Below, piece by piece: positions 1-53,542 of a stretch of 64,000 nucleotides of DNA. Numbering within the stretch: the first letter of the stretch is position 1; every line of letters begins with the position of its first letter. The stretch is from Raillietiella orientalis (Eukaryota). The position numbers and the translations under genes are program-made. Below the pieces are notes generated by a model. It was not told the origin of the DNA, did not search any database, and was given only the letters and a program-made list of their open reading frames with translations. The DNA lies in contig JAYWIR010000118.1 in assembly GCA_036172245.1 (NCBI GenBank), positions 1 through 64,000 on the forward strand. The letters are read 5' to 3'.

Positions 1-536
1 CAGTCATGTGGACCACCACGGAGCGGTCCATGGATACTGGCAGGATCTTGCGGCCGTCTACGTTCAGCGGCGCATGGATTAGGCGGTGAGCCAAGGTGAC
101 ATCTTTGCAGACCACCTCGACCCGCTGCCCGCCGCTGAGGACGGAGAGGCCGTCCAGATCCTTCTCTGTGACATTCGCGTCGTTCAACGCTTTGCTGAAG
201 GCGGGCGCTGTCCGGCCGTCGAACAAGTTGCCTACCTGGTAGACAAGCGATGGCTTGTACCCGGAGGCCTTGTATGCGGCCATCTCCGCCATGGCTTCTG
301 CGCTGGGTGCGGCCACCATGGCGCTCCATGTCCTCGGCGTGGCCGGGGATGATTCCGGGGCGGCTGCCCCTGCTCCAGTACGCTGTGGGGGCCAACTAGC
401 CTCCCCCACTCCCACCTCCATCGCGGTGTCCTCTGGCGTCGTGGCCATTGGACACCGACGATGTACACAAAACACCACACAGAAGAAAAAGCGCTTTCCT
501 ACTACTCTTTGGGGAGTGAAGGAAAAACACGTCCTC
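1..536 (-). mobile_element. Tx1/L1-type retrotransposon C2: 5' end and ORF1 N-terminus (ATG 448), runs off the left edge
   Basis: Starts GAGGACGTG (536-528) followed by a pyrimidine-rich 5' UTR. Translation MATTPEDTAME...RTWSAMVAAPSAEAMAEMAAYKASGYKPSLVYQVGNLF matches the ORF1 start of copy C (ATG 50709). Inserted sense into H ORF1. Confidence 0.85.
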
Positions 537-1889
537 CAACTAGCCTTGGGGGCAAACGGCTGCAACGAGGCAGCCAGCTCCTATTCGGCGCGCTCGAAGG
601 CGACGTCATCGAGCGTGGGCTCGATGACGGACGCCGCCGCCTCGCTCCCCTCCTTGTTGACTTTGTCAACGGAGGGTTGAGCAGGGGCAGCAGCGAGTTC
701 TTTAGTGCCGCATTCGTCGATGGCGGGAATCCGCTCTACAACGACGCAGCAGCTTTTAATTTTATCGCGGCGCAGAGCGGTTTCGCTCCGTTTCGCCACG
801 TTCTTTCCCTTCTTATGGGAGTTTTTCTTGGGGTCGACCTTCTGCCACCCTGGCTCTTGACCCTCGCCCTCGACCTTTTCGGCGTCTTTCGCCGAAGTCT
901 CGGGGCTGGCCTTCGCCTTGGTGGCGGAGGTGACCTCCTTAGCATCAGCACGAGCTGCCAGCTTCTTTCTCTTTTTTGCCGCGCGCTTTCTCGCGTTTTT
1001 CGCGGACACGACGCGGACTGTGTTTTGGGGGCACACCAGACGGGTGTGCCCCGCTTGTTTGCATTGCTGGCACTGCACGCTCGGACACCTCATTTTAAGG
1101 TGACCAAAGCTGCGGCAGCAGCCGCAAAACTTGGGTTTCCCCACGTACCACACGTCAACGGATTCACCGTTGACGGTGAGTTTGTGGGGAATCTCACATC
1201 CCTCGCGAACCGTCACTCGCGCTGCACCCAGGCCGCCAAGCAACCCGTCGTAATCGACAAAAGGAGTAGGCTTGCCCCACAGCGCGTGGACAGTTGCGAA
1301 TTTTTCCAATTTGTTCCGGACGGCCTCCTTCGTCATCCGGAACGTGATACCGGTCAGGTGAATGATCACCGACCGGTCTTCAGTTATTGGGAGAAGCCTC
1401 CGGCTGCCCATACTTACGGGGGTTCGCAGAAGTCTCTGCGCAAGAGTTGCCTCCTTGCAGATAACTTCCACAAATTGACCCCCGCTTCTGACGGACATAG
1501 CCAGAAGCTCCTCTTTCTGTACGCCGATAACGCGCATCGCCTGTGAGAAGGCGCGCGCGTTCTCGGGAGAATATAGACCGCCTACCTTATATAGAAGGGG
1601 TGGGTTATACCCCTCCTCCAGGTAAGCGCGCATTTCCGCCATAGCCGCTGGCGTAGGTGCCGCAGCCACGGCGTTCCAAGCCCTGGGTAGGGCCGGGGGC
1701 GCATCCATGCTGGCGGGAGCCTCCACTGATGCGGGAGCCCCCACCTCCATCTCCTCCGGGGGCAATGAGGTCATCGCCCCCGGATCCTCACCGGTGGTGG
1801 TATCAGGCATTGCTGCCTAATCCTCCACCCACACCACGCACAAGCACCAACGGAAATGGAACTCAGGAGCAACGAAAAGACACGTCCGC
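537..1889 (-). mobile_element. Tx1/L1-type retrotransposon H (type-E related): 5' end and ORF1, interrupted by C2
   Basis: GCGGACGTG at 1889-1881 and ORF1 at 581-1810. Inserted antisense into F ORF2. Confidence 0.85.
581..1810 (-). CDS. ORF1 (gag-like nucleic-acid-binding protein, two CCHC zinc knuckles), truncated
   Basis: CGCCRSFGHLKMRC and CQQCKQAGHTRLVC knuckles; homologous to the ORF1s at 9470-10273 and 48689-50188. Confidence 0.85.
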   Translation of the reverse strand: MPDTTTGEDPGAMTSLPPEEMEVGAPASVEAPASMDAPPALPRAWNAVAAAPTPAAMAEMRAYLEEGYNPPLLYKVGGLYSPENARAFSQAMRVIGVQKEELLAMSVRSGGQFVEVICKEATLAQRLLRTPVSMGSRRLLPITEDRSVIIHLTGITFRMTKEAVRNKLEKFATVHALWGKPTPFVDYDGLLGGLGAARVTVREGCEIPHKLTVNGESVDVWYVGKPKFCGCCRSFGHLKMRCPSVQCQQCKQAGHTRLVCPQNTVRVVSAKNARKRAAKKRKKLAARADAKEVTSATKAKASPETSAKDAEKVEGEGQEPGWQKVDPKKNSHKKGKNVAKRSETALRRDKIKSCCVVVERIPAIDECGTKELAAAPAQPSVDKVNKEGSEAAASVIEPTLDDVAFERAE

Positions 1890-4800
1890 TCGACGCTCCG
1901 GAATCTCCAGGACTAAGACCTTTTTAAGGAATCGGTCCGGGAGTTCTGCGAGCAGTTCCCCTTGGACCGCCTGCCCTCCGGATTCGGCGAGGGTCCTCGC
2001 AACTATCGGGCCTATTTACAGGCCCGTAGGTACGAGCGAAACCCTAATGTCCGTCGTCTGGCCGAGTACCGCGCCGGGGCCGAACGCCAAGCCTGGCAAT
2101 CCGGGTCGACCAGCTTGCTGGACGACCAGGGCCGGGAATGTTCGTCCCCGGCGTCGGTACGGCATCTCGTGCGGAGTAATTATTCCGCCCTTTACGCCAG
2201 GGCGCCCCCGGATCAAGATGCCTCTTGGCTCTTGCTTCCGGACGGTGCCGCGACAATCGGGGAGGAGGAGTCGTTAAGCCTCGATGAGCCTTTTACCACC
2301 GGCGAAATTCTCGCCGGTATCAAAAGGCTCAAGAGGCGGAAAGCTCCCGGGGAAGACGGTTTGCCTGCGGAGTTCTCTCAGAGCTTCGCGGAAGAGCTGG
2401 CACCCCTGCTGCTTCAGCTGACAAGGCTGATCCGAGGCGAAGGCGATGTTCCCGCCTCGTTTCGTTGAGCCAGAGTGAGGCTCCTTCCGAAAGGGGGAGA
2501 CCTTAGGAATTTGATCAACTGGCGTCCGATCACGATTGTGAATACGGACGCCAAGTTGGTTGCGGGGCTATGGGCTTCGCGTCCGGGGCAGGTGGCAGAA
2601 TCCATAATTAGCCCGGAGCAGACATATGCTGTTCCCGGGCGAAGCATGGATGCCAACCTCTTCTTCGCGAGGACATGGATACACGCGCAGAGGTGTCAAA
2701 AGGAAGGGAGAGGAAAAATCGGCAACCCCAATTTGGGGCCGCAAGCAGGGCAGGGTATGGACCCTCAAGCGGGGAAGGGGGCCTTAGCGCTCGCAGTCGA
2801 TCTCCATAAGGCGTTCGACTGTGTTGACCAGGGGCTTTTGTTGGAGCTCCTGGGTCGCATGGGCTTTCCACCCTCCTTGATCAACTACCTGCGCTATTGC
2901 TGGCGGAATGCGATTATCTCCATCTCTTTCAGTAGTCAGAAGGTGCATGGCGTGCCGGTGCGGCGGGGCATCAGGCAGGGAGATAGCCTGAGTCCCCTGC
3001 TCTTCAGCACCTACTTTGAGTTGGTGCAGAGAGCCTACAGGGTGACTTTGGCCTCCTTGCCGAGCTCGTGTCCCGGCACACCCGTCGTAGCAGCCTATGC
3101 CGACGAACTTTGCTCCTGTTACCTATGTCCACCCCGGCGAAGGCGGGCGGAGACTTCTTCGATCTGCTCAGCCGTGGGACCGGACTGCAAGTTAACAAAG
3201 CGAGGTCGTCGGTGGTGCCAGTAGGTGCGGCGTGGGCAGGGCAGCAGGAATGGGTCCGTCTATGGATCCTCACGGCGAGGTGCATCAAGTACCTTGGTGT
3301 GCCGTTGGGTCACTACTCCCCTGCGGAAGCGTGGTGCAGCTGCCTTGAAAAAGTCGAGACGGCGATTGGCCCGTTCCTGGAAGTCAAGTTTCACTTGCCG
3401 GAACGAGCCGCAGTTTAAAACGCCTTCGCGGCCCCCATCCTCCGCCCCTTGCTTTTTGTTTGCCCCGCCCCAAGAGTTGTTGAAAAGAGGACGAAGGACC
3501 TCCTCCGCATCGCCCTTTGGGGCAAAGGGAGGCCCCGAGTCCCTCTGCAGGACTTGTGGGCTCCGCGTCGGGACGGCGGCCTTGGCCTCCTGACGCTGAA
3601 GCGCGTGGAAATGCAGCTGCGGTGGCGAACCCTCCCCATCGCAGCGAAGATGTGGAGCACTTCTTGGTGCGTTCCGGCCCGCCACCTCGCCAGGCGTGTG
3701 TCCCGATGCGAAGGACTCGCGTCGTTTCTTCTGTGCCCTGGCGGGAAAATCCGAAGATGCGGCCTTATGCTCGGACGCATAGCAACCTTGGCGAAGACGA
3801 ACGGTTGGATGGTTTGTGGCCCCGCCAACTCCTCCGCCTGGTTGGAGGAGTCTGCTAGAACATGGGCTAAGCAGAACCGGAGGAGGGAAAACCACATGAA
3901 CTGCCTGCAAATCGGCCCATACGCCAACCGCACCCTGCGGGAAATACTGGAATTTCCTCGGAGTCGCAGGTGGGCGTTGACGACTTCCCTTGCTACGGCG
4001 ATGCTCTACCTCCTGAGGGCGCTTGAGGAGCGCCAGAAGCCGAGGTGGCAAGTCACCTGCCAGATCGCAGGCAGGGATTAGATGTTAAGCGGCTGGACCA
4101 CAGGAGAACTGGCGGACGCCCCGACCCCGAGCGTCCAGTTGAGTGGATTAATGAGATGGGGCGAGCTGCTCGCCATCCCTACGGATGTGCTGAAGTGGCC
4201 CCCGGTACTGAAGGAATCCAGGATCCTGCCCCTTTAGTGGCAAGAGTCGGCGTTGCTACTGCTGCACTGGGGTTTACCCTGCGAAGCACGCCGCTTCCAC
4301 TGGACGAGGGGAGCTGTGGATCCTGTGTGTGTCAGGTGCGGGGAGCGGGAATCCCTCTCCCACCTTATTGTGGACTGTGCTGCCATCCGACCCCTCTGGG
4401 AACGGTTCGGGGCGACCCTCGGACTCCCTACGGGCAGCACTCCCAGAGACGTTCTTCGGCCCGTCTTCGTGAAGGACGCACTGCATCCAGCCGCTGCCAT
4501 CGCAGCCTTGTGCTGTGTCCGTGTAATCGTGGCGGCATGGAGCGACGCCAACAACGAAGGAGTGGGTCCACACGCGAGGGATGTCATCCCATACGCCCAA
4601 CGCTTCATGCGGAGAGCTGCCGGATGGCCCCAACTGGGGAATATACGGACGGACCTCGAGGGCTTCCTTCAACGGATGGGCCCTCCTCACAGCGTTAAGT
4701 GATCCCTTCATTGCCCTCCAACTTGTTTTTGTCTGTTTATTTTTTTATTTTTCTTTTTGTTTTATCCCCATTTTCCTTCGCTGCTGAGGAACGCTACGCT

Positions 4801-4913
4801 GGGCTGCGTCATGGCGTCCCGGCAGGTCCAGTGCATATGGCCGTGAGCGGGGCCTTGTACCGCGGATGTAGAGTTTTTTAAAAATAGACGCCCCGGGCGT
4901 ACCCGGATGTAAA
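1890..4913 (+). mobile_element. Retrotransposon F: disrupted ORF2 (RT, zinc finger) and 3' end
   Basis: KAPGEDG, WRPITIVNTD, DLHKAFD, GIRQGDSLSPLLF, YAD and CVRCG..HLIVDC motifs spread over frameshifted ORFs. U-rich UTR and terminal hairpin ending GGATG-TAAA at 4913. Confidence 0.9.
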
Positions 4914-7900
4914 CCTGCAAGGCTGGCAAGGAGGCCGTAAGGCGTTCGGCCTCCCCTCAGGAGTCCATCACTTCCGACCTTGAGGTGGAGGCCGGAAGCG
5001 CAGTCTCCCTTTCTACGGCACCGCGCAAGAAGGCTGGACGTAAGTCCACAAAGCCAAGGAAGCTCGTCTCCGACGTCGAAGGGGAAGAGATGGCTTCCGC
5101 AAGCGAGGGTGCCATGAGCGTGGGAAACTCTCGGGACTTGTCGCCCGAGAGACTCTTACGCGCGGACACGGAGGGGATGGAGGGGGTGGAGGCCGAACAG
5201 GTGCCTCAGGTGCCTGAGAAGGCCGAAACTCCCATCGACATCCTGCCTGTCTCGAAGAGGAGGGCTCCCCCACACCTTAATCTTCCCAGCAGTAATGCCG
5301 GGAATCTCCTCCCGCCGTCGTCTGCGCATCGCCGTTTGGAACGTGAACGGCATGACAGACGCCGGCAGGAGACGAGACATTGCCGCCCTTCTCGAGACCT
5401 ACGACCTTGCGCTGCTGCAGGAGATCAACGTGATATCTGCACAACAAGCGCAAGAGATCAAACGGATCTCCGGAGAGCGGCTATGGTACAGGTGGGGGAT
5501 TGCGAAATGTTGCGGTGTTGCCTACCTGCTTCGGCCAGGATTCGAGGCCGCGGCTCGGGGCGTGCGGTTCGACGATCACGGTCGTGTCGGCCAGCTGACT
5601 CTCAGGTGGTCCGACTCGTTCGATCTGATCGTCACGAACGTGTACGCACCAAGAAGCGCGGACCTGATGAACAGGAGGTCGAGGAAAGGGGTTTTTTTAG
5701 CCCTGCGGCGAGACTGGCTGACCGAAGCAGGCGTGCGGAATGCCCATCTGGTTGCAGGCGATTTCAACGTTCGCCTGAAACCAGATGGGCAGAATCCCGA
5801 GCGAGACCTGGTCAACGAGGTGTGGATGGCGCTGCACACCTGTAATTTGTTGGCCAGTGCACCGGGGATGGAAGACAGCACTGACCACGTGTTTCTTGAC
5901 GAGCACCTGGGCCCTCGTGTGGGCAGGCGCGGCAAGTTACCGTGCGAGCTGTCGGACCATCGCCCGCTAGTCCTCCTGATCCATCCGCGATACAGGGGCC
6001 CCCCCTTGTCAGCGTGGCGTCTCCCAGGGCTCTTGCTGAAGCTCCCGAACGCGGCGGAACATCTCCGCACGTTCATACGGAGCTACAGGCTGCGGACACT
6101 CCAGGATTGGGACCGCTTCAAGCGGTCGGTCCAGGAGTTCTGCGACCAGTTCCCTCTGCACCGCCTACCAACGGGTTTTGGGACTGAAGTCCGTAACGAA
6201 CGAGCCTACTGCAGGCCCGTCGTTACGTCTGGACCCCCGACATCCGCAGGCTGGCGGAATACAAAGCGGGTTCCGAGAGGCAAGCCTGGCAGTCCGGATC
6301 GGCCAGCTTACTGGACGATCAGAGCCAGGAGCACTCGGCACGTGCCCAAATCCGAGGCCTGCTGCGGAGTTACTACTCCTCCCTGTATGCCAGGGCACCT
6401 CCGGAGAGGAAAGTCTAACGACTGGTGCTTCCGGAAGGCGCCATAGCGATCGGGGAGGAGTAGAGAAAGACCCTCGACGAGGCTTTCACGATGGACGGGA
6501 CACTCTCGGCCATCGGAAAGCTAAAGAGGCGAAAGGCTCCAGGGGAGGACGGAGTGCCCGCGGAGTTTTATCAAACTTTCGCGGCTGAGCTTAGTCCCCT
6601 GGTACAGCAACTTACTTTGCTGATACGCAAAACAGGTGACGTTCCCGCCTCGTTTCGTTCGGCAAAGGTGCGGGTCCTCCCTAAGGGAGGAGATCTGAGG
6701 AGCATCAACAAGTGGCGTCCCATCACAACAGTGAATGCGGACGCCAAGTTGATAGCTAAGGTTCAGCAAGAGAGATTGGAACAAGTTGCCAACATCTTTA
6801 TCAGCCCGGAACAGACATATGCTGTTCCCGGGCGAAGCAAGGAGGCGAACTTGTTTCACGCTTCCACCTGGCTAGAGCTCCAACAAGGAAGAAGCTTGGT
6901 GCGCAGCCGGAATTTCGGTGCGTGCGCCGGCAAGGGGTTGGATGGTCGGGTGGTGGAGGGAGCCCTCGCGGTCGCACTCGACTTGCGGAAAGCATTCGAT
7001 TGGGTCGTCCAGAATTTTCTTCTGGAGCTTCTGGAACGCTTAAGATTCTCGGCCTCATTAGTGGCCTATCTGCGCTTCTGCTGGCGCGACGCGCTCATCA
7101 ATGTTACTTTCAGCGGGCAGACCGTGCAAGGCGTGCCGGTGCGGCTTGGGATCCGGCAGGGAGACAGCCTGAGTCCCTCGCTCTTCAGTAGCTACTTTGA
7201 GTTGGTACTAAGAGCGTAGAGGGGAACTCTGGCGCACCTGCCGCACGACTGTGCCGGTACGCCGGCCGTTCCAGCATACGCGGACGACCTTCTGCTGCTG
7301 CTTCCTATGTCCATCCCTGCTGCGGCGGTCGAGGAGTTGTTCGACCTGCTGCATCGGGGAACCGGACTTACGGTGAACAGGGCGAAGTCGTCCGTGATGC
7401 CAGCTGGTGCGGCGTGGGCAGGGCACCAGGACTGGGTCCGTTTGGGGATCCCCACGGTGAGGTACTTCAAGTACCTTGGTGTGCCGTTGGGGGACTACTC
7501 CCCTGCGGAAGCGTGGTCCGGCTGCCTCCAAAAAGTAGAGACGGCGTTCGGCCCGTTCCGAGGCGGCAGGTTTTTCCTGCCTGAACGGGCCGCGGTTTAA
7601 AACACGTTTGCGGCTCCGCTCCTGCGCCCCCTGCTTCTTGTTTGCCCTCCACAGAGAGAATTAAAAAGCGGACAAAGGACCTCCTCTGTATCGCCCTTTG
7701 GAGCAACAAGAAGGCCCGATTCCGCTTAAAGGAATTGTGCGCTCCTCGTCGGGATGGTGGTCTGGGCCTCCTGATACTGCAGCGGCTGGAGCTTCAGCTC
7801 CAGTTCCGATTGTCGACACTCGTTCCAGAGTTGTGGTGCACCTGTTGGTGCGTCCCTGCACGTCTCCTTCTCCAGCAAGCCACCGGCAAGACGGGAGTGA

Positions 7901-9091
7901 CGTCGTTTCTTGCACTCCGTCGCCGCGTCAACCGATGCGGACTCCAGCTAGGGAGGGTGGCTGCGCTGTATCGGAAAAACCCAGGATTGTTCACCTGTCG
8001 CCCGGTTAACGGTAGTGCCTGGTTGCAGGAAACCGTACAAACGTGGGGACAGTTCGTCATGCAACGCTCTTAACAGGAACGAAGGTTCCTGTTAAGGGGT
8101 TACAGAAGTTGCACGCTCCGCGAGATTCTGGAGGATCCAAAGAAGAGTGCGTGGGCAGAAAGAACCACCCTCGCTGAAGCGCTTCCCTTCTCCATGGAAG
8201 ATCTAGACAGCGATGTTGCGGCGAAGTGGTTGGTTACAGTAACAATCTCCGGAAAGGAGAAGAAGATAGGAGAGTGGAAGACGGGCCAGTTAACAGACGC
8301 TGCGACCCCGAGTACGCCTCTCAATGGACTTCTGGGCTGTTGCGCGCTGCTCGATGTTCCCATTGAACATCTGAAGTGGACCCCGGTTCTCATGAACACT
8401 TCCGCCCTCCCCTTAAAATGGCAGGAGTCGGCTCTCCTGTTGCAGCACTGGGGACTTTCCTGCAACGCCCGCCGACACCACTGGACCTGGGGAGGGGTGG
8501 ACCGCAATTGCGTCAGGTGTGGGGAACGGGATTCCCTGCCCCACCTGCTAGTGAATTGTGTTTTCATTCGGCCCCTTTGGTTCCGCTTTGCCGAGGCCAT
8601 GGGAATCCCCTGCGGCAACCCCAGGGACGCACTGAAAGCCTCTTCTTTGCCGACGCCCTTCGGCCAGCGGCCTCGTTAGCAGCTTTGTTCTGCCAACGCG
8701 GGATCGTCACTGCTTGGTGCAAGGCTACGGGAGGACAACGCGACCAGAGTGCCATCCAGCCAGCCTCCCAGTTCCTGAGGAGGGCGTCTCGATAGCCCCA
8801 CCTGGATCCAGGAATACAGAAGGAGCTTCCCGGCATCCTGCAAAGGATGCAAAGGCCCCACCAGCAACTGTGATCCCTTCCCTTACCCTCCCAACTTTTC
8901 TTTTCTTTTTTGTTTTGTTTTTTGTTCTTCCCCTTTCCCCCTGCTGCCGTGGTGGACCGTACCGGTCTGCGAACCGGTGACCCGGCAGGCTCTGTGTTTC
9001 TTGGTGCGTGGCTGGAGCAATGCTTAAGCTACCGAACGTCTTTGTAAATGTTTATTTTACAATAAACGTCTTGGCGAAATCAGGGTGAAAA
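4914..9091 (+). mobile_element. Retrotransposon G (type E): ORF1 C-terminus, disrupted ORF2 (APE-RT-ZnF) and 3' end
   Basis: TAATG at 5293-5297; WNVNG, LQE, GDFN and SDH endonuclease motifs; KAFD, QGDSLSP and YADD RT motifs; ends GGGTG-AAAA at 9091. Confidence 0.92.
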
Positions 9092-9316
9092 TCGAATGCT
9101 TTGTGCAAATCTTCTGCTAGTGCCAAGGCTCTTGGCCTTTCTTTCGTCCGTCCGCACTGGCGCACGCAGTCAGCAGAAGGTCTTGCCGCTGTTCGGCTAT
9201 CCGCCGCAACGCGCTCTTGGTGCTACCACCAGGTGCGCGCGAAAAGAAGGTTCGCATCCATGGATCTAATCGGTAAAGCGTAAGACTGCTCCGGGCTTAC
9301 CAAGTACTCCGCAATT
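9092..9316 (-). mobile_element. 225-bp type-A RT fragment ending in KAF(D)
   Basis: Near-identical reverse complement of about 62699-62923 (element K), including a shared premature TGG TGG TAG. Confidence 0.85.
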
Positions 9317-9361
9317 ACATTTTATTTTACAATAAACGCATCGGTGAAATCCGGGCGAAAA
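9317..9361 (+). mobile_element. Isolated ~45-nt type-E 3' terminus (AATAAA plus hairpin)
   Basis: TTTATTTTACAATAAACGCATCGGTGAAATCCGGGCGAAAA matches the end of G. Confidence 0.8.
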
Positions 9362-9384
9362 TCGAACACCTTGTGCGCTCTAGG

Positions 9385-10518
9385 GCGGACGTGTTTTCTC
9401 GGTGCTCCTTCTGCCAGCAATTCTCCCGAAGTGCATGCGTCGTGTGATTCGGTGGTCGATGAGACAGCGATGCCTTACGCGACCACCAGGAATGGCCACG
9501 GGGCAGCAGCAACGCCGCCCCTAGAGGCGATGGAGGTGGAAGCATCCGTTCCAACAGAATCGGTCTTCGCTGCAGCGCGGGCGTGGAGCGCCGTTGTGTC
9601 GGCGCCATCGCCTGCAGCCGCGGCGGAATTGTCGGCCTATGTAGAGGAGGGGTACAACCCCTCATTGTTCTACAAGGTAGGCAATTTATATTCTGTAGAA
9701 AGCGCGCTCGCGTTCTCGAAGGGCAAGCGCGCTCTCGATGTAAAAGAGGAGGAGCTCAGCGATATGACCATCCGCAGCGGGGGTCAGTACGTTGAGGTCA
9801 TCTGCAAACAAACACAGCTTGCCCAAGGACGGCTTAAAACCTTCGTGGTGATGGGGACGCGCAGGCTCCTCCCTATTACGGCGTACCGCAGCATGGTGGT
9901 CCACCTGTTAGGTGTCACTGCGCGGATGCGCAAGGAACAGGTTCGCGCCGCGTTGGAGGAATACGGAACGGTCCACGCGCAGTGGACGAAAGTTAGTCCT
10001 TCCAAAGACTACACGGGGCTGCAACACGACCTCACGGCTGCGCGCGTGACCGTTCGGGAGGGCTGCACTCTTCTCCACAAACTGGTGGTCGAAGGCGTAA
10101 CCGTCGACTTCTGGTATGTGGGGAAGCCGAAATTCTGTGGCCTCTGCAATACGTCGGGCCACCTCAAAAAGAGGTGTCCCAACGTGCAATGCCAAGTATG
10201 CGGCACAATGTGTCACACGAGGGAGGCGTGCCCCAAAGCAGCAGTGCGGGTGGTTTCCAAGAGAAACCTTTAAAAACGCGCCCGGCTTCTGCAGAAAAGG
10301 CTGGCGGCGAAAGCTGCCGCGAAGGCTGTGCCACCCGCGCCCAAGAACCAGGCCGCACCCGAGACCCCGGCCACCAAAGCCGAAAAAGTTGAGGGTGCCG
10401 GCCAGGAGAATATGTGGCAATTGGCAACGGCCAAGAAATCAAAAAAGGAAAGGAGATTAGAGAAAAAGCTCTAAAAATTTATTTTACAATAAAAGCCCCG
10501 GCGAAATCCGGGTGAAAA
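9385..10518 (+). mobile_element. Retrotransposon E2: 5' end and partial ORF1 (9470-10273) fused to a ~45-nt 3' terminus
   Basis: GCGGACGTG at 9385-9393, ORF1 with two CCHC knuckles, 3' hairpin at about 10488-10518, imperfect ~14-bp TSD (9362-9375 and 10519-10532). Confidence 0.8.
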
Positions 10519-13500
10519 TCGAAAACCTTCTGGAGGTCGACTGCGACCGCCAAGGAACCGGGCTTTCCCTCCTGCCTTCGGCGCCGGTTCTTCTTGCCTG
10601 CTGCTGTGACTTTCGCCTAAGCCAGGCTTTGCTGCGCCACGACTTCCTGCAGCTGCATCCAAGTACGCGTGAAAAGGATGTTCGCCTCCATGGATCGTCC
10701 GGGAATCGCGTAGGTTTGTTCCAAGCTCACCACAGATTCCGCGATTGTTCCTAAGCGCGCGACCCACAGCTTGGAAAACAACTTGACGTCCGAGTTCTCC
10801 AAGGTGATCGGACGCCAGTTGTTGAGTTGACGCAAGTCTCCGCCTTCCGGCAGGAGACGCACCTTCGCTGAGCGGAAGGAATCCGGGACATTCCCGGATT
10901 CACTCATCAGCGTCGCGAGTCCCAACATGAAGGGAATGAGCTCCACTTCAAAGCACTGATAAAACTCTGCAGGAAGCCCATTCTCGCCTGGCGCCTTTCG
11001 TCTCTTCAGCCCAGCGATGGCGTACGAAAATTCATCCGCCGTGAAGGGCTCGTTGAGACGTTCGCGTTCCTCCTCGCCGACAACACGAGCATCCTGAGAC
11101 AGGAGTATCTCAGAAAGAATATCCTCCGTCAGGGATTCGGCGTACAGCGAGGAGTAGTAGCGTCTCACAATGCGGTGTACTTCGGCTGGGGCCGAACATT
11201 CCTGGCCCTTGTCGTCCAACAAGCATGCTGCTCCGGACTGCCAGACCTGGCGCTCGGCCCTCGCCTTGTACTTCGAAAGACGCCCGACATCCGCGAGTCT
11301 CGAAAACGTGCGGGCCTGCAGAAAGTCTCTACTGTTGGCAACGCCCTCTCCGAAACCGCGTGGAAGCCAATGCAAGGGGAATTGGCAGCAGAACTCGCGG
11401 ACAGATCTTTTGAGATCGTCCCAGTCCGCAAGTTCTTGAATGGCGAGGCCTCAAAGGTATCCACGTAGATGCTCCGCAGCCTCCGGTTGGCTAAGCCAAT
11501 CCGCCTGCATCCACCAGTTTTGCAACGGAGGCCCCCTGCCTGGCGGAAGGATCTCAAACTCCAACCTGTAGTGGTCAGAAAGCCTAGTCAACAATCTTCC
11601 TCTCCTACCCACACGCGACTGCAGGTATTCATCGAGGAAAACGTGATCGAGCGATCTTGCCATTCCAGGTTCGCCGACCATCAAGTTGACGGCGGAAACG
11701 GACGCGCACATCTCGATGGGCAGCGCGCGCTCCCTCGGGCGGCTCCAATCGTCGGAAAGCAGGCGGACGTTGAAGTCCCCAGCGACGAGGTGTGCCACTT
11801 GGAAGCCGGAGTTGTTGAGATAGTGGCTCTGCACCTCAAAGAAGAAAGCTACTCTTAATTTGAGGTAGCGAGAGCCACTCGGCGTGTAGACGTTCGTAAC
11901 GACGAGATCGATGGACTCGGACCACTTGATGACAAGCTGGCCTATCCGTCCATCGTCATCGAAACGAACACTATGCACCGCTTCCTCTATTTTTCCTTTT
12001 ACGAGGAACGCGACGTCGCACGTGTGTGCGCCGCCGCACCGCCAATGTAGCGTTCCGCCTGCGCGCTCCTCGATTTCGGTTGCCTGCTCGTCGGAGATTA
12101 CGTGAATCTCCTGCAGGAGCGCGAGGTCGAAGGGGCGCAGGGCGTTGGCTACTAATCGCATCTTCTCGTCGTTCTGTAGTCCGTTCACGTTCCAACACGT
12201 CACGGACAGACGACGAGAAGACGCGATTCCACGCATTACTGCTGGGAAGGTGGCAGCTTTTTGCTCGCTTTATCCGGCGAGCAGACGGCGAGTAGCACGA
12301 CTGGCTGGAGAGGACGGTCGCCACCGTCCTCTGTCGTGCTGCATGCATGTAATGCCTCCACGCCAGGCTGAACCCCGTCGGGTTTCGTGGAGACTTCGCG
12401 TTGCTTCGCGGCGAGCGTTGCCTGGCTGCCTACTTTTGATCGGCGCGCACACGCTTTCGAACGAGTTGTCCTCGTCTCGGTGATCGGAACGGCATCCATT
12501 TCGGAGTTCGACCGGCGCATGTTCGATCGGGTTTCGGCCTTCCGCGAAGCAGTGACAGGTTCTGCTGTATTGACATCTGTCCTGTTTTCGTTTTCCGTCA
12601 CCAGAGCATCGCTTTTGGTGACGGCTGCTTTCCCGGCGCGCGCGTTTTCAGCGTGCTCACGCGCAGAAGCACGAGGGACCTTTGCTGAAGTCTTCTTTAC
12701 TTCATTACGGTTACTCACTTCGCGTGGCGCCGTAAATGGAGATTGTGCTCCATTGCCATCTTTGAAGCCATCCGCGTCTTTGGACGGGAGCACTTTGGAT
12801 GGCTTCGACACGCTCGTCATGGACGCTGCCTTCGGAAGGGCTTTTAATCCCTTCGTTGGCATGGCATCCGCGCCAGTCGAGAGCTTGCTCTCCGATTGCG
12901 ACGGCGTGAGATTTTTCTCCGCTTTCGCCGTTTTGGATCGCAACGCGGATTTTTTTTTCCGACTTTCGAACTCGACACGGCACAACCCTTCTTACCCGAT
13001 TTGGGCTTCTCAGCCACTGCAGGAGGTGAAGGAATGGATCTGAAGGTAATGGAAGTGTCCTTACCGCCGTTGTCCATTGACGTCCCCGCCGGTTGCTCGA
13101 ACTCCGAAAGAGCCGGGCGTGCTTGGTTAGGACAGCTATTGCGCCCAGGGGGACTTACCATTGCCCCGGATTCCCCGCACCCTTTCTTTTGCGGCTCCCC
13201 TGCCGCGAGAGGGGGCGCGCAGGGCTTCGCGTGCGAGGTTTCCTGCTGCTTTGGGGCGACATTCCGCCTCGCGTTTCTTCGGAATTTCTGCCGTGGGGTC
13301 TCCAGGTTTTTCGCAGATTTTTTCTTTTTATCCGCGCTTTGTTTCTTAAGATGAAGCTATTCGGCTGCCTTTTTTCGCAAAAGATCCGGGCAATTTTTCA
13401 ATTGATGCCCGGATAGTTTGCAATAACGGCATTTTCCAGAGGGGCATTTATCCAAACAATGTTTCTCCTTCCCGCATTGCTCGCACGTTCTTACTTTGCC

Positions 13501-14231
13501 GACGAACCACAGGTGAACGATTGTGTCTTTCACTTGTAGTGTGGTGGGCAGCAGACGGCGGTCCGGCATTGTAAGCCGGACTCCAGCGACTCCGTTGTGT
13601 ATGTACGGGAAGTCCTTGAGGTTGCTACGCTCCCTCCACAGCGCATGGACCGTGGCGAATTCCACCAACGCGTTCCGAATGTCAATATCGAAGATTTCCG
13701 ACTCGATGTCGAAAATCTCCGCCACAAATGAGTCGTCCATGGCGGCCGGGAAGACCTTCTGGCCACGGATCGACAACGGGGTGCGCAGCAAGCGTTGCAC
13801 AAGTGCAGCGTCTTTGCAACGCACCTTGAAATAGCCCATGTCTTTTACGTGCATAATGGCGAAAAGGTCCTCTTCCCGCACGCCAACACGGGTCAATTCA
13901 TCGTTGAACTGATTCCCGTCGCGCGCAGAAAGAAAGCCACTCACCTTATATCGGAGAGCAGGTCTATAGCCTTGGGCTACGTATGCCCGCAACTCCGACT
14001 CGTCGAGTGGTTTCCCTTTGACGGCTGCTGTGGCAGCAACGTCAGCAAAACTCCTCTCCATTGGTGAGAAAGACGAAGTGGAGGCGGCCGTAGGTTCCGC
14101 GATTGCAGATCCGGATGCTGTTCCTCCAACTTCAGTAGCTTCAAGTTGGGTCGACATCGTCGTCAAAATGTACGACGCCAAGATGAAGCGGATGAAAGCA
14201 CGGAGACGAGAGCGAAGAAAAGCACGTCCGC
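10519..14231 (-). mobile_element. Retrotransposon B (type A): 5' end, ORF1, and ORF2 up to the KAFD motif, where it is interrupted
   Basis: Closely similar to copy A. ORF1 pieces 13357-14181 and 12236-12985, TAATG at 12238-12234, APE 11451-12236, RT start 10617-11375. Confidence 0.92.
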
Positions 14232-14556
14232 ACTCGATTGAAATTTATCACCCGGTCACGCCGGGGCGTTTATTAATAATAATAAACTGGTCAGGGACAA
14301 TGTCCCCAACCAACAGAACGACAGAGAACATAGAAAAATTACCGCCACGCAGGCCTGGTAAACAAACCGCTCGCAGCGTGGGGGGAATGAGGGGAAACAA
14401 ACAAAAATCCAAAACTGGAGGGAAGGGAAAAGGGTTTTTGGTTAGGCTCCGTACTCACGGGGATTTAAACGATGAGCACCTCAAATGTTCCGGAGCCTAT
14501 GGGGACGCGGGTGTAAAAGAAAATACAAATTTAGTTTATGGAGGGTAGGGCAATGA

Positions 14557-17500
14557 TCACCGGGTTGGCCGCTGATGAGGGTGTGTAAACCGGCGGTGTA
14601 TTGCGGCGAGATTCCTCTTTGTCTCCTCTGTCAAATGAGGCCATCTAGCGGATGCTCCCATGTAGAAGGATGCTTTGCTGATTACCTCTTGGTACTGTCC
14701 GTTGATTACCAACGCCTGGCGGACGGAAACTATCGCGCGTATGCAACCGATGGTTGCAATCCTTGCGCTTACTGAAAGCCCGCTCGGCGTGAAGAATCGT
14801 CGCAGCAAGTCTCTTGCGGTGTCCACGGGATGCAATAGTGCTGTTGCCAGCCTACGCCACAGTCCTTGTAGGACACCGCAGTCCAGAAGTAGGTGCGGAA
14901 TCGACTCCGTCGATCCGCACCGAACGCAGTTCGCAGACGCAAGTCCCCCGGAGTCACGATGCCAACGCTCGTTGCACTGAAAACCCCAGTGAACGAAAAG
15001 CAGCACGGCTTGTTTCCAAGCAAGAAGGAGCAGCCAAATGTCCATACACTGTGGAGGGACTACAAGTTCTTCGGGGGTGACAGCAAGTTCTTCTGCCCAC
15101 CGGAGGAGTCCCTTTGCAGTAACACGAGGAGTGGCGGCGTCCGCCAACTCACTTGTCTTCCAGGTGCCAAGGAGTTTGGTTCTTCCCGCTATCGTGCAGG
15201 AAACCTCCCACCTCGCCGGTTGGTAACTATCGTTTCTTGCCCTGAGGGCAGACAGCGCTGCGGCAAGAGGCGTGGCAGCCAGGGTAGAAAACTTCACCTC
15301 GTCCTGCAGTACTTCTTCCAAGGATCGTGGAAAAAATTGGCGCAGGGGGCGAAGATCTTCAGGGCGTATTCCTTGGAACGCCGCCCAGGATTCAACAGAC
15401 TCCTGCCGCCAAGCTTCAAAGTTCATTGGGCGGCAGGAGATCCCAGAGTGTGCTTCCAGAAGTGCGGTCAACTGCCGCAATGGAAACCCGAAACCCCGCT
15501 TCCTGTATTGAGTGCCCGGCAAAAGCGAGAGAAATCCTCCGCTGCCGGCGCATCTCCGCAGGAGAATGCGAGCTGGCACGCACAGGGGGGATGTCCATAG
15601 CTGGGCACACAGTGCCAGCAGTCGGAACTGCACCTGCAGTCCGATTCGCTCCATTGTCAGGATACCCAAACCAGCATCCCGACGCGGAGCTGACAAATCT
15701 TTAAGGCGGATCCTGGATCTCGCCGGACCCCAGAGAACGTTCCTGAGCAGGCGCTTAGCCCGCTGTTTTGCCGCATAGGGGGGGTCCAAAACAAAAAACA
15801 GGGGACGGAGGAGGGGGGCCACAAAGGTGTTCCAAATAGTCGCCCTATCCTGCAAGGTAAACTTGCCGTTAAAGAACGGGCTGATGGCCAACTCTGCTTT
15901 CTGAAGACAGTCCGCCCACGCTTCGGCTGCGCCGAAAGCGCCCAACGGAACGCCAAGGTACTTAAAGTACCCGCCCGTGGGGATCCCCAGGCGGAGCCAG
16001 TCGGACTGCCCCTCCCACGACGTACCCACAGGAACGACCACGCTCTTCTCTCTGTTCACGCTCACGCCCGCTCCCCGACGAATCAGGTCGAAGAAATCCT
16101 CGACACTGGACGCCGGGGTGGACATGAGGAGCAGAAGAAGCAGGTCATCAGCGTAGGCGGCCACGGCAGGCGTTCCCGGGCAGGAGCTTGGCAAGTGAGA
16201 CAGCGTCAGCCTGTATGCTCTTAGCACCAACTCAAAGAAGATGCTGAAGAGCAACGGGCTTAAGCTGTCGCCCTGTCGGATGCCCCTACGAACGGGAATA
16301 CCATACACGCGACAGCCGCTAAAAGTGATGCAGGTTAGCGCGTGGCGCCAGCACGCGCGCAAATACAGCAGGAGTTGCGCCGGGAACCCAAAGCGTTCCA
16401 TAAGCTCCAAAAGCAGCTTCTGGTTTACGCAGTCGAACGCCTTGTGGAGATCGACCGCGACCGCCAAGGCACCTGGCGTTCCCTCCTGCCGTCGGCGCCT
16501 GTTCTTTTTGCCTGCGGCAGTGACTTTCGCAGCAGCCTGGCTTTGCTGCGCCACAACTTCCTGCAGCTGCATCCATGTACGCGCGAAAAGGATGTTCGCC
16601 TCCATGGATCGTCCCGGAACCGCGTAGGTTTGTTCCGGGCTCACCACAGATTCCGCGATTCTTCCTAGCCGCGCGACCCACAGCTTGGAAAACAACTTGA
16701 CGTCCGAGTTCACCAAGGTGATCGGACGCCAGTTGTTAAGTTGGCGCAAGTCTCCGCCTTTCGGCAGGAGACGCACCTTCGCTGAGCGGAAGGAATCCGG
16801 GACATTCCCGGATTCACTCATCAGCGTCGCGAGTTTCAGCATCAAAGGAATGAGCTCCACTGCAAAGCACTGATAAAACTCTGCAGGGAGCCCATCCTCG
16901 CCTGGCGCCTTTCGTCTCTTCAGCCCAGCGATGGCGGACGAAAATTCATCCGCCGTGAAGGGCTCGTCGAGACGTTCGCGTTCCTCCTCGCCGACAACAC
17001 GAGCATCCTGAGACAGGAGTATCTCAGAAAGAATATCCTCCGTCGGGGATTCCGCGTAGAGCGAGGAGTAGTAGCGTCTCACAATGCGGCGTACTTCGGC
17101 TGGGGCCGAACATTCCTGGCCTTCGTCGTCCAACAGGCATGCTGCTCCGGACTGCCAGACCTGGCGCTCGGCCCTCGCCTTGTACTCTGCGAGACGCCCG
17201 ACATCCGCGCGTCTCGAAAACGTGCGGGCCTGCCGAAAGTCTCTACTGTTGGCCACGCCCTCTCCGAAACCGCGTGGAAGCCGGTGCAAGGGGAATTGGC
17301 AGCAGAACTCGCGGACAGATCTTTTGAGATCGTCCCAGTCCGCAAGTTCTTGAATGGCAAAGCCTCGGAGGTATCCACGTAGATGCTCCGCAGCCTCCGG
17401 TTGGCTAAGCCAATCCGCCTGCATCCTCCAGTTTTGCAACGGAGGCCCCCTGCCTGGCGGAAGGATCTCAAACTCCAACCTGTGGTGGTCAGAAAGCCTA

Positions 17501-18150
17501 GTCAACAATCTTCCTCTCCTGCCCCCACGCGAATGCAGGTTTTCATCGAGGAAAACGTGATCGAGCGATCTTTCCATTCCAGGTTCGCTGACCATCAAGT
17601 TGGCGGCGTGCACGGACGCGCACATCTCGATGGGCAGCGCGCGCTCCCTCGGGCGGCTGCAATCGTCGGAGAGCAGGCGGACGTTGAAGTCCCCAGCGAC
17701 GAGGTGCGCCACTTGGAAACCGGAGTTGTTGAGCCAGTAGCTCTGCACCTCACCAAAGAAAGCTACTCTTTCTTCGAGGTAGCGAGAGCCACTCGGCGCG
17801 TAGACGTTCGTAACGACGAGATCGATGGACTCGGACCACTTGATGACAAGCTGGCCTATCCGTCCGTCGTCATCGAAACGAACACTACGCACCGCTTCCG
17901 CCATTTTTCCTCTTACGAGGAACGCGACGCCTCACGTGTGTGCGCCGCCGCACCGCCAATGTAGCGTTCCGCCTGCGCGCTCCTCGATTTCGGCTGCCTG
18001 CTCGTCGGAGATTACGTGAATCTCCTGCAGGAGCGCGAGGTCGAAGGGGCGCAGGGCGTTGGCTACTAATCGCCTCTTCTCGTCGTTCTGCAGTCCGTTC
18101 ACGTTCCAACACGTTACGGACAGACGACGAGAAGACGCGATTCCCCGCAT
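14557..18150 (-). pseudogene. ORF2 of A: APE endonuclease, reverse transcriptase and C-terminal zinc finger, with one in-frame TGA at 17934-17932
   Basis: 72-aa and 1115-aa ORFs in the same frame; B has TGC at the stop position. WNVNG, LQE, GDFN, SDH, KAFD, QGDSLSP, YADD and CVRCG..H...C motifs. Confidence 0.93.
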
Positions 18151-20071
18151 TACTGCTGGGAAGGTGGCGGCTTTTTACTCGCTTTATCCGGCGAGCAGAC
18201 GGCGAGCAGCACGACTGGCTGGAGGGGACGGTCGCCACCGTCCTCTGTCGTGCTGCATGCATGTAATGCCTCCACGCCAGGCTGAACCCCGTCGGGTTTC
18301 GTGGAGACTTCGCGTTGCTTCGCGGCGAGCGTTGCCTGGCTGCCTACTTTTGATCGGCGCGCACACGCTTTCGAACGAGTTGTCCTCGTCTCGGTGATCG
18401 GAACGGCATCCATTTCGGAGTCCGACCGGCGCATGTTCGATCGGATTTCGGCCTTCCGCGAAGCAGTGACAGGTTCTGCTGGATTGACAGCTGTCCTGTT
18501 TTCGTTTTCCGTCACCAGAGCATCGCTTTTGGTGACGGCTGCTTTCCCTGCGCGCGCGTTTTCAGCGTGCTCACGCGCAGTTGCACGAGGGACCTTTGCT
18601 GAAGTCTTCTTTACTTCATTACGGTTCCTCACTTCGCGTGGCGCCGTAAATGGAGAGTGTGCTCCATGGCCATCTTTGAAGCCATCCGCGTCTTTGGACG
18701 GGAGCACTTTCGATGGCTCCGACACGCTCGTCATGGACGCTGCTTTCGGAAGGGCTTTTAATCCCTTCGTTGGCATGGCATCCGCGCCAGTCGAGAGCTT
18801 GCTCTCCGACTGCGACGGCGTGAGATTTTTCTCCACTTTCGCGGTGTTCGATCGCGACGCGGATTTTTTTTTGCCGACTTTCGAAGTCGACACGGCACAA
18901 CTTTTCTTACCCGATTTGGGCTTCTCAGCCACTGCAGGAGGTGTAGGAATGGATCTGACGGTACTGGAAGTGTCCTTACCGCCGTTGTCCATTGACGTCC
19001 CCGCCGGTTGCTCGAACTCCGAGAGAGCCGGGCGTGCTTGGGAAGGACCGCTATTGCGCCTAGGGGGACTTACCATTGCCCCGGATTCCCCGCACCCTTT
19101 CTTTTGCGGCTCCCCTGCCGCGAGAGGGGGTGCGCAGGGCTTCGCGTTCGAGGTTTCCTGCTGCTTTGGGGCGACATTCCGCCTCGCGTTTTTACCGAAT
19201 TTCTGCCGTGGGGTCTCCAGGTTTTTCGCAGATTTTTTCTTTTTATCCGCGCTCTGTTTTTTAAAATGGAGCTCCGCGGCTGCCTTTTTCGCAAAAGATC
19301 CGGGCAATTTTTCAATTGGTGCCCGGATAGTTTGCAATAACGGCATTTTCCAGAGGGGCATTTATCCAAACAATGCCCCTCGTTCCCGCAGTGCTCGCAC
19401 GTTTTTACTTTGCCCACGAACCACAGGTGAACGACCGTGTCATTCACCTGTAGTTTGGTAGGCAGCAGACGGCGGTCCGGCATTGTAAGCCGGACTCCAG
19501 CGACTCCACTGTGTATGGACGGGAAGTCCTTGAGGTTGCTACGCACCCTCCACAGCGCATGGACCGTGGCGAATTTCGCCAACGCGTTCCGAATATCAGT
19601 ATCGGAGATTTCCGACTCGATGTCGAAAATCTCCACCACACATGAGTCGTCCATGGCGGCCGGGAAGACCTTCTGGCCACGGATCGACAACGGGGTGCGC
19701 AGTAAGCGTTGCACAAGTGCAGCGTCTCTGCAACGCACCTTGAAATAGCCCATGTCTTTTACGGGCATAATGGCGAGAAGGTCCTCCTCCCGCACGCCAA
19801 CACGCGTCAGTTCATCGTTGAACTGATTCCCGTCGCGCGCAGAAAGAAAACCACTCACCTTATATCGGAGAGCAGGTCTATAGCCTTGGGCTACGTATGC
19901 CCGCAACTCCGACTCGTCGGGTGGTTTCCCTTTGACGGCTGCTGTGGCAGCAACGTCAGCAAAACTCCTCTCCATTGGCGAGAAAGACGAAGTGGAGGCG
20001 GCCGTCGGTTCCGCGATTGCAGATCCGGATGCTGTTCCTCCAACTTCAGTAGCTTCAAGTTGGGTCGACAT
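18150..20071 (-). pseudogene. ORF1 of A (two CCHC knuckles), with one frameshift in an A-run near 19287
   Basis: ORFs 19070-20095 and 18150-19361 overlap; B has one more base in the same run. Confidence 0.88.
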
Positions 20072-20145
20072 CGTCGTCAAAATGTACGACGCCAAGATGA
20101 AGCGGATGAAAGCACGGAGACGAGAGCGAAGAAAAACACGTCCGC

Positions 20146-21183
20146 ACTCGATTGAAATCTCCCGCTATCAGGTGAGCCTTCCGCACGCTCGTGTTCGCCA
20201 GCCAGTCGCGCTTCAGGGATTCAAGCAGCCTGGTACGGTTGCTGTATCCCTTTTGACCGGTTCGGGCGTACACATTCGTGACGATCAGATCGATCGGGTC
20301 GGACCAGCCGAGAGTCAGCTGACCGACCCGACCGTCGTCATCGAAGAGCACGCCCTTCACGGCAGCGTCGATGGCCGGCTTCACGAAGAACGCGACCCCG
20401 CAGGTGTTGCGGATGCCGCATTGCCAGTACAGCCGACCCCCCGCGATCGTCTCGATCTCCTGGACGTCTACCGCGGTGATCACGTGGATCTCATGCAAAA
20501 GGGCCAGGTCGAACTCCCGCAGAGTGTCGGCTGTATCTCGCCTGTTACCGTCGTCGCGCAGTCCGTTGACATTCCAGCAGGCCGCGCGAATCCGACGGCG
20601 ACTGGCGAGCCCAGGTGTTACTCCTGGGAAGATGGCAGTGCGGCGTCCGCCACCTGCTGGGGCGGGACGCTAGGTGGAGGAGGGGGGTCAGGTGCTGAAT
20701 GCACCTGGTCCCCCTCCTCCATCGGTGCCGGCGCGTCGGCCGGATCATCCGCAGGTGGAGTCGCGCCTACCTGTTCGCCCTTCTCCATGGAGGCGGGCTG
20801 TTCAGGGTCGGCGCCTGCAGGGGGGACTTCATCCCCCTGTTCACCCTCCTCCATGGGGGTGGCCGGATCGACGGCTTGCGAGCGTAAGAATTCCCCCTCC
20901 GGGATTCCCACGCTGCCGCTGCCTTCCTGCTTCTCCTCCTCAATGGTGGAGGGGAGGCGCCTCCTGGGTTTGTGGGACTTGCGTCCCGATTTCCTGGGGG
21001 GTGCCTCCGAGGAGGAGGATGTACTTCCGGCTCCCAGGGCTAACTCACCTGCGAAGGCCTTGTTAGCCGTAGCCGGCCTTCGCACGGCCTTGCGCGAGGG
21101 TTTCTCCCGCTCGGCCAGCGCGACCGCGAGCTCCTCCGCCGCCTGTGTAAACGCGGCGTCCGCGGCTTTGACCGCCGCGTTAA
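20146..21183 (-). mobile_element. Retrotransposon C1 (type C): ORF1 C-terminus and APE N-terminus up to GDFN
   Basis: PMEEG repeats and SSQE stop at 20618, then TPGLASRRR..CWNVNG...HLIAGDFN. Confidence 0.88.
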
Positions 21184-29199: not shown

Positions 29200-30010
29200 A
29201 GAATGCGAGGTTGCCGGACGAAGGATGATGTCTTCATACAAAGCGTTTTCATGACAGCACAAATTCGACCGACCCTCAATTCACCTTCTGACCGTCACCC
29301 AACCTCTGCCCGAATTCGTTATGACTCTTGTTCTGACTCGAGAAGAAAAATCGATCACATGGTAGTTGGATCGTGCCGCAGAATTCAGTATAGCTGAGTA
29401 TTCGTTGCACTCAGTCTGACTGAAGGACGCGAAAAGGCCGTCAGACGTCCGGCCCCCACAAAGAATGACCAGAACTCGCACTCCCACCTGTGGAACCGGG
29501 GGCTCACCATTTCTCATTTTCTCATTTCCGTCTCCGGGATGACCAACTCCATCTACGGGATTCCGATCATTGTCTGTTTCAATGGTCTTTGAGTTGGTCA
29601 GCGAAAGCGAAGCAAACATCCACTCGGAACGCGAGTCGTCCGTGCGGCTTGGCAGTCCACCCACGAAGCAGGCGACAGCTGATGGAAAGTTTCCTCATCG
29701 GCTGGTTGTCCCCCCGCGGCATTGCAGGCCAATCTCCTGGACGAGCGCGCTGGTGGACGGCACGCCCGGACGTTCACTATAAAAAATAACAAACAACGAT
29801 GGGTACGGCCGTCGGCCCTACATCGTCCGCAAACGCTCGCAGCCTGGCCAGTCAACGGCACGCACGCCGGCCACGTTCGCCTCGGAAGCGGAGGAACAAA
29901 CAAAAAGAAAAAGCGTGAAAGAAAGCAAAAATGTGCGGCACACGGCAAGCGAGCCCTGTCCGCTGTTGGGCAAGGACGAACATGCAGACTTGCCTTCCAG
30001 CACCCTCCAA
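29200..30010. mobile_element. Degraded APE remnants (+ strand) abutting an antisense element 3' end (29761-30010, - strand)
   Basis: SRRKIDHMVV and ERAGGR on + strand; U-rich UTR and hairpin on - strand. Inverted paralog of 38540-38890 and 39950-40140. Confidence 0.6.
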
Positions 30011-38399: not shown

Positions 38400-38707
38400 T
38401 ATTGGGGCGGCGCGCCGGGGACGTCCATCTGCCCTTCGCTCTGCTCTTCCTGCAGACGGAACCAAGATGACGGAACGACGTGGGACACACTCGGGTGGAA
38501 CTTGCCGGAAGCCTGGGAAGCATGCAGAGGACGCCCTGCAGCGGACAGCGATCCCTTCCCACATCTTTGCTTTTTTTCTCGCTTTTTCTTTTGGTTTGCC
38601 CCTCCGCTGGCGAGGCGAACCTGGCCTGCCTGCGTGCCGCTCACTGACCAGCTTTCGGGCGTTTGCCAACGTTGTTTGTTCTTTTTTATAGTGAACGTCC
38701 GGGCGTG
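38400..38707 (+). mobile_element. Degraded element 3' end inserted antisense at a host ERAGGR motif
   Basis: ORF2-tail similarity, U-rich UTR and partial terminal hairpin GAACGTCCGGGCGTG. Confidence 0.6.
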
Positions 38708-40140: not shown

Positions 40141-40252
40141 GGCCATATTTCGTATGTAGCTGGCATTTTCTAGCCAACGATTTCATTTTTTATTGCAACC
40201 CGGATGCGAAGCGTCCTCTGGTGGTTGTCAGGGAACACTCGGGATTCGTTTG

Positions 40253-41383: not shown

Positions 41384-41454
41384 AGTCTCCGACGCCACCG
41401 CTTTTTTCACAAAGTCTGTTCTTTTCCAGGAGACGAGGCCCGGTGAGGCGATAG
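41003..41454 (+). CDS. Putative small 3-exon host gene, 78 aa, with hydrophobic N-terminus (exons 41003-41074, 41241-41380, 41430-41454)
   Basis: GTGAGT donors, polypyrimidine-CAG acceptors, 166-bp and 49-bp introns, in-frame join, AATAAA at 41526. Confidence 0.45.
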
Positions 41455-53150: not shown

Positions 53151-53542
53151 TCGAGCGCTTTGCAGAGATCGGCGGCGTCCGCGAAGGTTCTCGACGTTCC
53201 ATCGTGCCTTGAACACCGACGCTTACCTTTGGCTGCGGCGATTTCGTCTGCCTGGCTCTGCTGCGCCACGCACTGCGGCAACTCGAACCATTTTCTCGCG
53301 AAGAAGAGATTGGCGTCCATGGACCGCCCCGGAACAGCATACGTCTGCTCCGGACTTACCAAAGACTCCGCGATTCTTCCCAGGCGCCCGATCCATAGCT
53401 TGGAGAACAACTTGACGTCCGAATTCACCAAGGTGATGGACGCCAGTTGCTGAGGTTACGCAAATCACCGCCTTTCCTCAGGAGCCTCACCTTTGCTGAG
53501 CGGAAAGAAGCGGGAACATCTCCCGTCTCACGCATCAGCGAC
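53151..53542 (-). mobile_element. Type-A RT fragment L, cut at KA(L)D by M and upstream by K
   Basis: LMRETGDVPASFRSAKVRLL, NSDVKLFSKLW and DLCKALD. Confidence 0.85.

Follow-up and report, generated by a model that had tools for sequence, protein, structure and literature searches.

Within a 64,000-nt stretch built largely of related LINEs, positions 9317–10535 hold two 3′ ends of one LINE family, E, arranged head to tail and each followed by a 14-mer that matches a site in the reverse transcriptase (RT) gene of other LINEs. The question raised by this locus is whether the site in one host element, B, was used at least twice, as a preliminary description had proposed, and what such re-use says about the specificity of E. 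The whole stretch (the window; C118:1–64000) begins at base 1 of the 109-kb contig C118, so that no contig sequence precedes it on the left, in an assembly of 210 Mb and 491 contigs. The family letters A, B, D, E, F, and G are working labels, in part taken over from the preliminary description. Apart from the LINEs and unrelated to them, the window contains a direct repeat of about 470 bp in two copies (40248–41387) and inverted matches between 28726–29971 and 38533–40185.

E is an APE-type non-LTR retrotransposon, i.e., an L1-like LINE with an APE endonuclease followed by the RT in ORF2. Full-length E measures about 5.58 kb and comprises a gag-like ORF1 and the endonuclease-RT ORF2, with Pfam matches to Exo_endo_phos (43 bits, cut-off 24.5) and RVT_1 (79.6 bits). 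CCHC knuckles in ORF1 and a C-terminal zinc motif in ORF2 are visible in the translation; the Pfam scores for zf-CCHC_4 and zf-RVT lie below the cut-off. For the sister element C, the best PDB match is human L1 ORF2p (1e-43 vs. 2e-16 for R2). The combination by which LINEs are recognized, 5′ truncation and flanking direct repeats without LTRs, was found in 20 of 20 selected truncated copies of E. Protein relatives of E are only 21–31% identical, except for one protein at 70% (named relatives: 24–29%), which points to a lineage-specific radiation of L1-like elements, and the RT regions of the sister LINE families are 50–68% identical to that of E. Genome-wide, a strict pattern for the E 3′ end gave 61 matches (reversed control: 0), a looser pattern gave 359 (control: 12), and the 5′ motif of E gave 283. 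A hairpin at the E 3′ end was predicted as a short stem that was no better than in shuffled sequences (z-scores of −0.65 to +0.11).

In the window, the E 3′ end and the two 14-mers at 9362–9375 and 10519–10532 lie exactly where the preliminary description had placed them. To their left, E1 (4911–9091, plus strand) covers E positions 1400–5584 with 92% identity to full-length E and contains the Exo_endo_phos domain (43 bits, cut-off 24.5); its 5′ part is cut off at an insertion site of family F, and this junction at E 1400 recurs. E1 is followed by a fragment of host D (9092–9316, minus strand), i.e., pre-KAFD RT sequence with its target 14-mer at 9092–9105, which is homologous to 62699–62923 and breaks off at about 9316, whereas D continues in the homologue. 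The junctions at 9092 and 62923 are possible duplicates of each other: the D flanks are alike, but the E parts have only two rare variants in common. Joined to host D without a TSD is E0 (9317–9361, plus strand), a 3′-terminal stub ending in GGGCG AAAA, of which BLAST aligns 41 nt from 9321 onward and which comprises up to about 46 nt.

The 14-mer at the E0/E2 junction (TCGAACACCTTGTG; 9362–9375, plus strand) has an A at position 7 (A7) and forms the first 14 nt of the 5′ end of E2. The following bases, previously counted as about nine extra nucleotides, number 11 (9376–9386, plus strand) and are nucleotides 15–25 of E's own 5′ terminus, as indicated by a 25-nt spacing before GGACGTG (here at 9387) that recurs genome-wide. 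E2 continues with its 5′ UTR and the first part of ORF1 (9387–10471, plus strand; 87% identity to E 1–1148, supported by the translation), in which an ATG at 9470 opens a frame with two CCHC knuckles (zf-CCHC_4 weak, below cut-off) that closes at 10273; GCTC in E2 is a subfamily variant. E2 (9362–10518) is not a whole element but internally deleted, with E 1 to about 1152 fused without microhomology to the 3′-terminal 47 nt of an E (10472–10518, plus strand). The starts of the two 3′ stubs of the window, E 5538 and E 5544, are about 6 nt apart. Short 3′ stubs as a recurrent class were considered and rejected: matches of <380 nt apply to 13 of 109 distinct E 3′ ends, and matches of <60 nt only to locus L100, a doubtful case (L088), and the two window stubs. 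Among the same 109 ends, no further comparable stub without a TSD was confirmed, the 38-nt match in L088 being doubtful.

The second 14-mer (TCGAAAACCTTCTG; 10519–10532, plus strand) belongs to host B, is antisense to its K-V-F-D codons, and carries three changes from the empty target site of the intact element A (TCGAACGCCTTGTG; 16433–16446, plus strand). Host B (10519–14244, minus strand) is the 5′ half of an A-family LINE with ORF1, endonuclease, and RT up to KAFD, and is 95% identical to 16433–20158, as also seen with tblastn. Neither the window nor C118 up to 82 kb contains its post-KAFD half. At 14228–14260 (minus strand), an A 3′ end leads into the short motif also seen at the A 5′ junction of 20142–20170 and then into the 5′ end of B, i.e., an A-B head-to-tail stack at 14244. 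Read on the minus strand, the 14-mers correspond to the KAFD codons of the LINE RT. That both 14-mers of the stack carry A7, against G in the site of intact A, was correctly noted before. A7 is the sole deviation from the majority sequence common to both junctions; the upstream 14-mer lacks the other two changes of B (positions 6 and 12). The idea that the two 61-nt junctions are one duplicated repeat is not favored, as only A7 is shared and 7 of 55 positions differ between them.

Genome-wide, E targets the TCGAA within the KAFD codons of LINEs related to it and lands there antisense. Next to the first 30 of the 61 strict E 3′ ends, an unselected set, we found host KAFD in 20 cases (hosts from several families), the 5′ end of another E in seven, and other TCGAA sites in three. 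LINEs have been called target-specific if >20% of copies share one flank type (accessible text of PMC4494074), a proportion exceeded by E with 20/30 copies in host KAFD and 7/30 in E 5′ ends. Among the looser 3′-end matches listed, 74 of 100 continue exactly with AAAATCGA, counted by eye. Furthermore, 20 of 20 loci chosen for their non-standard flanks contain a 5′-truncated E between direct repeats with at least 12 matching nt (with a further 30-nt alignment, in L088, left out of this set). These repeats begin with TCG in 18 of the 20 loci, which identifies TCGA as target DNA and the insertions as independent. Of 893 genomic matches to the KAFD-site pattern, the first 100 listed include 17 with an E end (by-eye count). 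Within the window, other E 3′ junctions are located in a G-type host (53151–53164, plus strand) and in a D-type host (62910–62923, minus strand). Several host families and dispersed TCGA sites support the conclusion that the specificity of E does not depend on segmental duplication. In this respect, the preliminary description was right on the basis of the genome-wide data, whereas the stack from which it had argued does not carry the point. Self-avoidance by E, whose own site reads TTCCG, was rejected, because E is present in E-type KAFD sites (L041/L072, L043, and L100). At L100 (G000:C14 near 225540), the E insertion in the KAFD site comprises 23 nt and is flanked by a 12-bp TSD. A far more distant LINE in the window (55339–60092, minus strand; 26–35% identity) has an intact KAFD and a different downstream codon, and is without an E insertion.

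Whether the two 14-mers of the stack record a duplication of B's site depends on where the upstream copy comes from. At E 5′ ends throughout the genome, a target-like 14-mer and 11 conserved bases make up 25 nt, followed by GGACGTG. In 87 distinct 5′ motif matches, including seven unclassified ones, some of which are not E, position 13 of the 14-mer and position 15 of E vary together (p = 6e-16), and 14 of 87 E 5′ ends vs. 0 of 54 host junctions have a C at position 5. We then compared upstream and downstream 14-mers in the 23 copies that are flanked by host sequence on either side; this set excludes tandem and nested elements as well as L105, which lacks a 5′ motif match, and the fetched loci were in part chosen rather than random. 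The two 14-mers were identical in one of the 23 copies, host variants were found upstream at 4 of 28 positions, and position 13 tracked the E subfamily in seven of eight conflicts. The total of 28 is inflated, since some downstream variants post-date the insertion and could not be copied. Thirteen pairs were host-concordant, and two of their seven family-diagnostic variants had been copied upstream, both in L101; the other 10 of the 23 remained without assignment to a single host family, some being recombinants and others having no close reference. Host bases in the upstream 14-mer of L101, and in part of L104 and L126, demonstrate that true TSD copying does occur. We conclude that the upstream 14-mer in full-length E is usually E's own, i.e., a target mimic, and sometimes partly the host's. 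As a caution, what looks like a TSD at a full-length 5′ end can stem from the element itself.

These data bear directly on the claim that A7 marks the two 14-mers as TSD copies of B's site. According to this reading, the site already carried A7 when the first E inserted, and the second E used the upstream copy. A7 is indeed common to both 14-mers and rare elsewhere (3 of 143 E 5′ ends and 0 of 71 empty sites examined), and host bases at positions 6–9 were copied upstream in the minority of pairs named above (L101, L104, and L126). However, upstream 14-mers are mostly derived from the E subfamily, and L102 has A7 at its E 5′ end over a host with G7. A TSD pair would also require that B's change at position 6 arose after the insertion. 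Finally, the upstream TSD and the continuation of B expected left of 9317 are absent locally, with pre-KAFD RT of host D in their place, an outcome that the preliminary description itself had named as speaking against its proposal. We therefore regard this reading as rather unlikely. As the upstream 14-mer is usually E's own, the shared A7 lends weak support to a TSD pair; it offers modest support for an origin at B, with a rough likelihood ratio of 2–4.

In contrast to the TSD pair, the head-to-tail re-insertion itself is real, and the second E 3′ end lies at exactly the same nick position. A genome-wide search for further E/14-mer/E arrays, as suggested by the preliminary description, revealed 27 head-to-tail junctions including this stack (reversed control: 0), i.e., about a tenth of the 5′ ends. 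Cleaner tandems with the host anchor kept are L007 and L164, of which L007 retains host flank, TSD, truncated E, 14-mer, and second E, and three E copies lie head to tail in C32 (L106–L107; G000:C32:89468–100624 and beyond). Damaged as it is, the stack in the window is a genuine tandem of an ordinary kind, such as a site-specific element would be expected to leave.

The damage raises two further possibilities. The stack could be a composite, with E0 and the 5′ half of E2 originating at a different locus and linked to an E 3′ end in B through recombination, deletion, or template switching; B would then have been hit once. Both internal joints lack a TSD, host D forms the left flank, and different host families are found on the two sides of some E copies elsewhere (L116 and L108). 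On the other hand, single internally deleted E copies exist (L122 and L078), and the shared A7 tilts slightly toward one site, and we consider a composite distinctly improbable. An assembly artifact, affecting either 9317–9385 or the entire stack, might be suspected near the start of a 109-kb contig built largely of related repeats, all the more as no independent record bridging 9316–9362 or 10471–10472 was found. In one DNA run (word share of 0.12), contigs bridge neither of these odd joints; one contig bridges the junction of the E end with D-type sequence at 9051–9245, with 25 differences. Yet the stub and E2 have private changes and no near-identical partner (the best other E2 copy reaches 91%), at most two of 43 rare variants are common to any other copy, and the same geometry is found at 26 other junctions. 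We give an artifact almost no credence.

With reasonable confidence, we thus favor a site-specific L1-like LINE that uses a fixed nick and carries an element-borne 14-mer, with the stack as a scarred re-insertion, probably at B's site. Integration would occur by target-primed reverse transcription at the fixed nick, where cutting of the host sense strand after ...TTCGA in the KAFD codons would place E antisense in the RT of a sister element. By analogy with Tx1L, E's own endonuclease may set this nick. While 5′-truncated E copies have an ordinary TSD of about 14 bp, the first bases of full-length E are the element's own target 14-mer, usually in place of the host's upstream TSD. The cDNA end probably anneals to the target overhang, for which R2 5′ junctions provide a precedent, and transcription would start at the 14-mer. 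Every insertion thereby rebuilds the target, the nick is used again by later copies of E, and head-to-tail stacks form, re-use of rebuilt sites being observed. At 9317–10535, two deletions or template switches may have left the scars, by which the middle of E2 was lost and E0 was cut to its last 41–46 nt and joined to host D; the stack probably formed at B's site, and its left anchor is lost. Regarding priming, 88 of 94 E 3′ ends have an A-run of precisely four. This near-invariant tail suggests priming aided by pairing with read-through target RNA; a poly(A) tail would fit it less well. For R1Bm, the I factor, and R2Ol, pairing of the RNA with the target is described as helping to prime (accessible text of PMC6007223); the precise, invariant 3′ junction of E fits such pairing, which in E is deduced from the constancy of tail length.

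The closest known systems, as far as the accessible parts of the sources extend, are the self-nesting Zepp elements and members of the Tx1 clade with targets in DNA transposons or LTR elements. Tx1-clade LINEs target other transposons, which applies to Tx1L in Tx1D and to Tx1-Mar and SINEU-3 in Mariner-N4_AMi, to Tx1-8_Crp and Tx1-4_AMi in LTR elements, and to Tx1-9_AMi in Harbingers (PMC4494074, PMC1950540). Tandem copies around the TSD are described for SINEU-3 (PMC4494074), and nicking by the element's endonuclease for Tx1L (PMC1950540). E shares with Tx1 the APE-type LINE organization and the fixed target within a different mobile element. Unlike in Tx1, its targets are coding motifs of sister LINEs, in reciprocal and cyclic relations, for which no Tx1 case was found in the accessible texts; the two are likened by targeting habit and not by tree, the named relatives of E being 24–29% identical. 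Zepp and ZeppL, L1 elements of green algae, form nested clusters by insertion into existing copies and thus have their own copies as target (PMC8226300, PMC3446292, as far as accessible). E resembles Zepp as an L1-type element with nested clusters, but differs, compared by description, in that it enters mostly other families, antisense, and at one nick. Own-copy targeting was not the main habit of E: its own 5′ end accounts for 7/30, and its own KAFD is used occasionally (L041/L072 and L043). Zepp clusters are also characterized by a centromeric position, one per chromosome; in the present assembly of 491 contigs, matches on contig C5 fall into several separate stretches. As for the tandem, double insertion at a preserved target is known from R1 tandems and P-element dimers, and target-preserving insertion is expected to yield head-to-tail dimers with the target in between (bioRxiv 10.1101/158386, accessible part). 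As framed by the preliminary description, the tandem is this already-known phenomenon; E tandems differ in that the intervening 14-mer is mostly element-borne and not a copy of the local site. The accessible part of a centromere atlas (10.64898/2026.09.17.752431) revealed no comparable case.

Beyond E itself, the wider system includes fixed breakpoints in E copies, which cluster at 1200–1214 (14 distinct junctions), 1400–1412, 1939–1949, 3229–3246, and E's own KAFD. Family F has 36 strict 3′ ends in the genome; among 30 fetched loci, 20 lie at position 1400 in E ORF1, one in a similar ORF1, four before an F 5′ end, and five elsewhere. Family G has 69 strict 3′ ends; of 30 fetched loci, 13 lie at E 1214, two were scored as lying before a G 5′ end, and 15 as other, several of the latter being weaker matches to the E 1214 site. 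F and G are also hosts of E. A-type 3′ ends were found at the GDFN codons of F at four loci, with a matching 5′ junction at window position 20158, evidence that is thinner than for F and G. Since A enters F, F enters E, and E enters A, targeting would be cyclic, and it would be reciprocal for E and F and for E and G. KAFD in the RT and GDFN in the endonuclease are what we take to be parts of the catalytic motifs.

Several junctions in the window and elsewhere are of the same kind. An F-family 3′ end is joined to E position 1400 at 4862–4925, and an F-type 5′ end lies at 515–560 (minus strand) in the ORF1 of another family (581–1816), at a position homologous to E 1400–1412. At 20142–20170 (minus strand), an A 5′ end is located in an F element, at the GDFN codons of its endonuclease. 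The 5′ end of an antisense element is found at E 3229 (50780–50810), with matching breakpoints at 3242–3246 in L076 and L136; an inverted 7.6-kb match with about 91% identity, between window 45867–53543 and C118:62533–70157, includes the E cut at 3229. In L066, L130, L131, and L132, a further family is inserted antisense at E 1939–1949, where the endonuclease is encoded. A CCCGG...CCGGGT motif is common to the families and precedes a short 3′ tail that differs from family to family.

With moderate confidence, we propose a web of at least six sister LINE families, each with a sequence-specific site in an ORF of another, in reciprocal and cyclic relations, and with 5′ target copies that would make the system self-renewing and partly RNA-assisted. 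This reading includes that two sites lie in catalytic-motif codons and that the families possibly read into the target at their 3′ end. Such a web is probably undescribed: our literature search revealed no description of LINE families that target each other sequence-specifically, with subscription journals, Repbase Reports, and supplements (including the Tx1 target lists of PMC4494074) lying outside the search. If the proposal is true, these mobile elements use and disable each other as their sole safe landing ground. The system would show repeated change of target specificity among LINEs whose RTs are 50–68% identical to that of E, and with such close relatives, the acquisition of new sites by APE endonucleases or by RNA-target pairing would be directly testable. 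As the motif codons are hard for a host to change, and as each insertion disrupts another family, the web would represent a concrete conflict among transposons.
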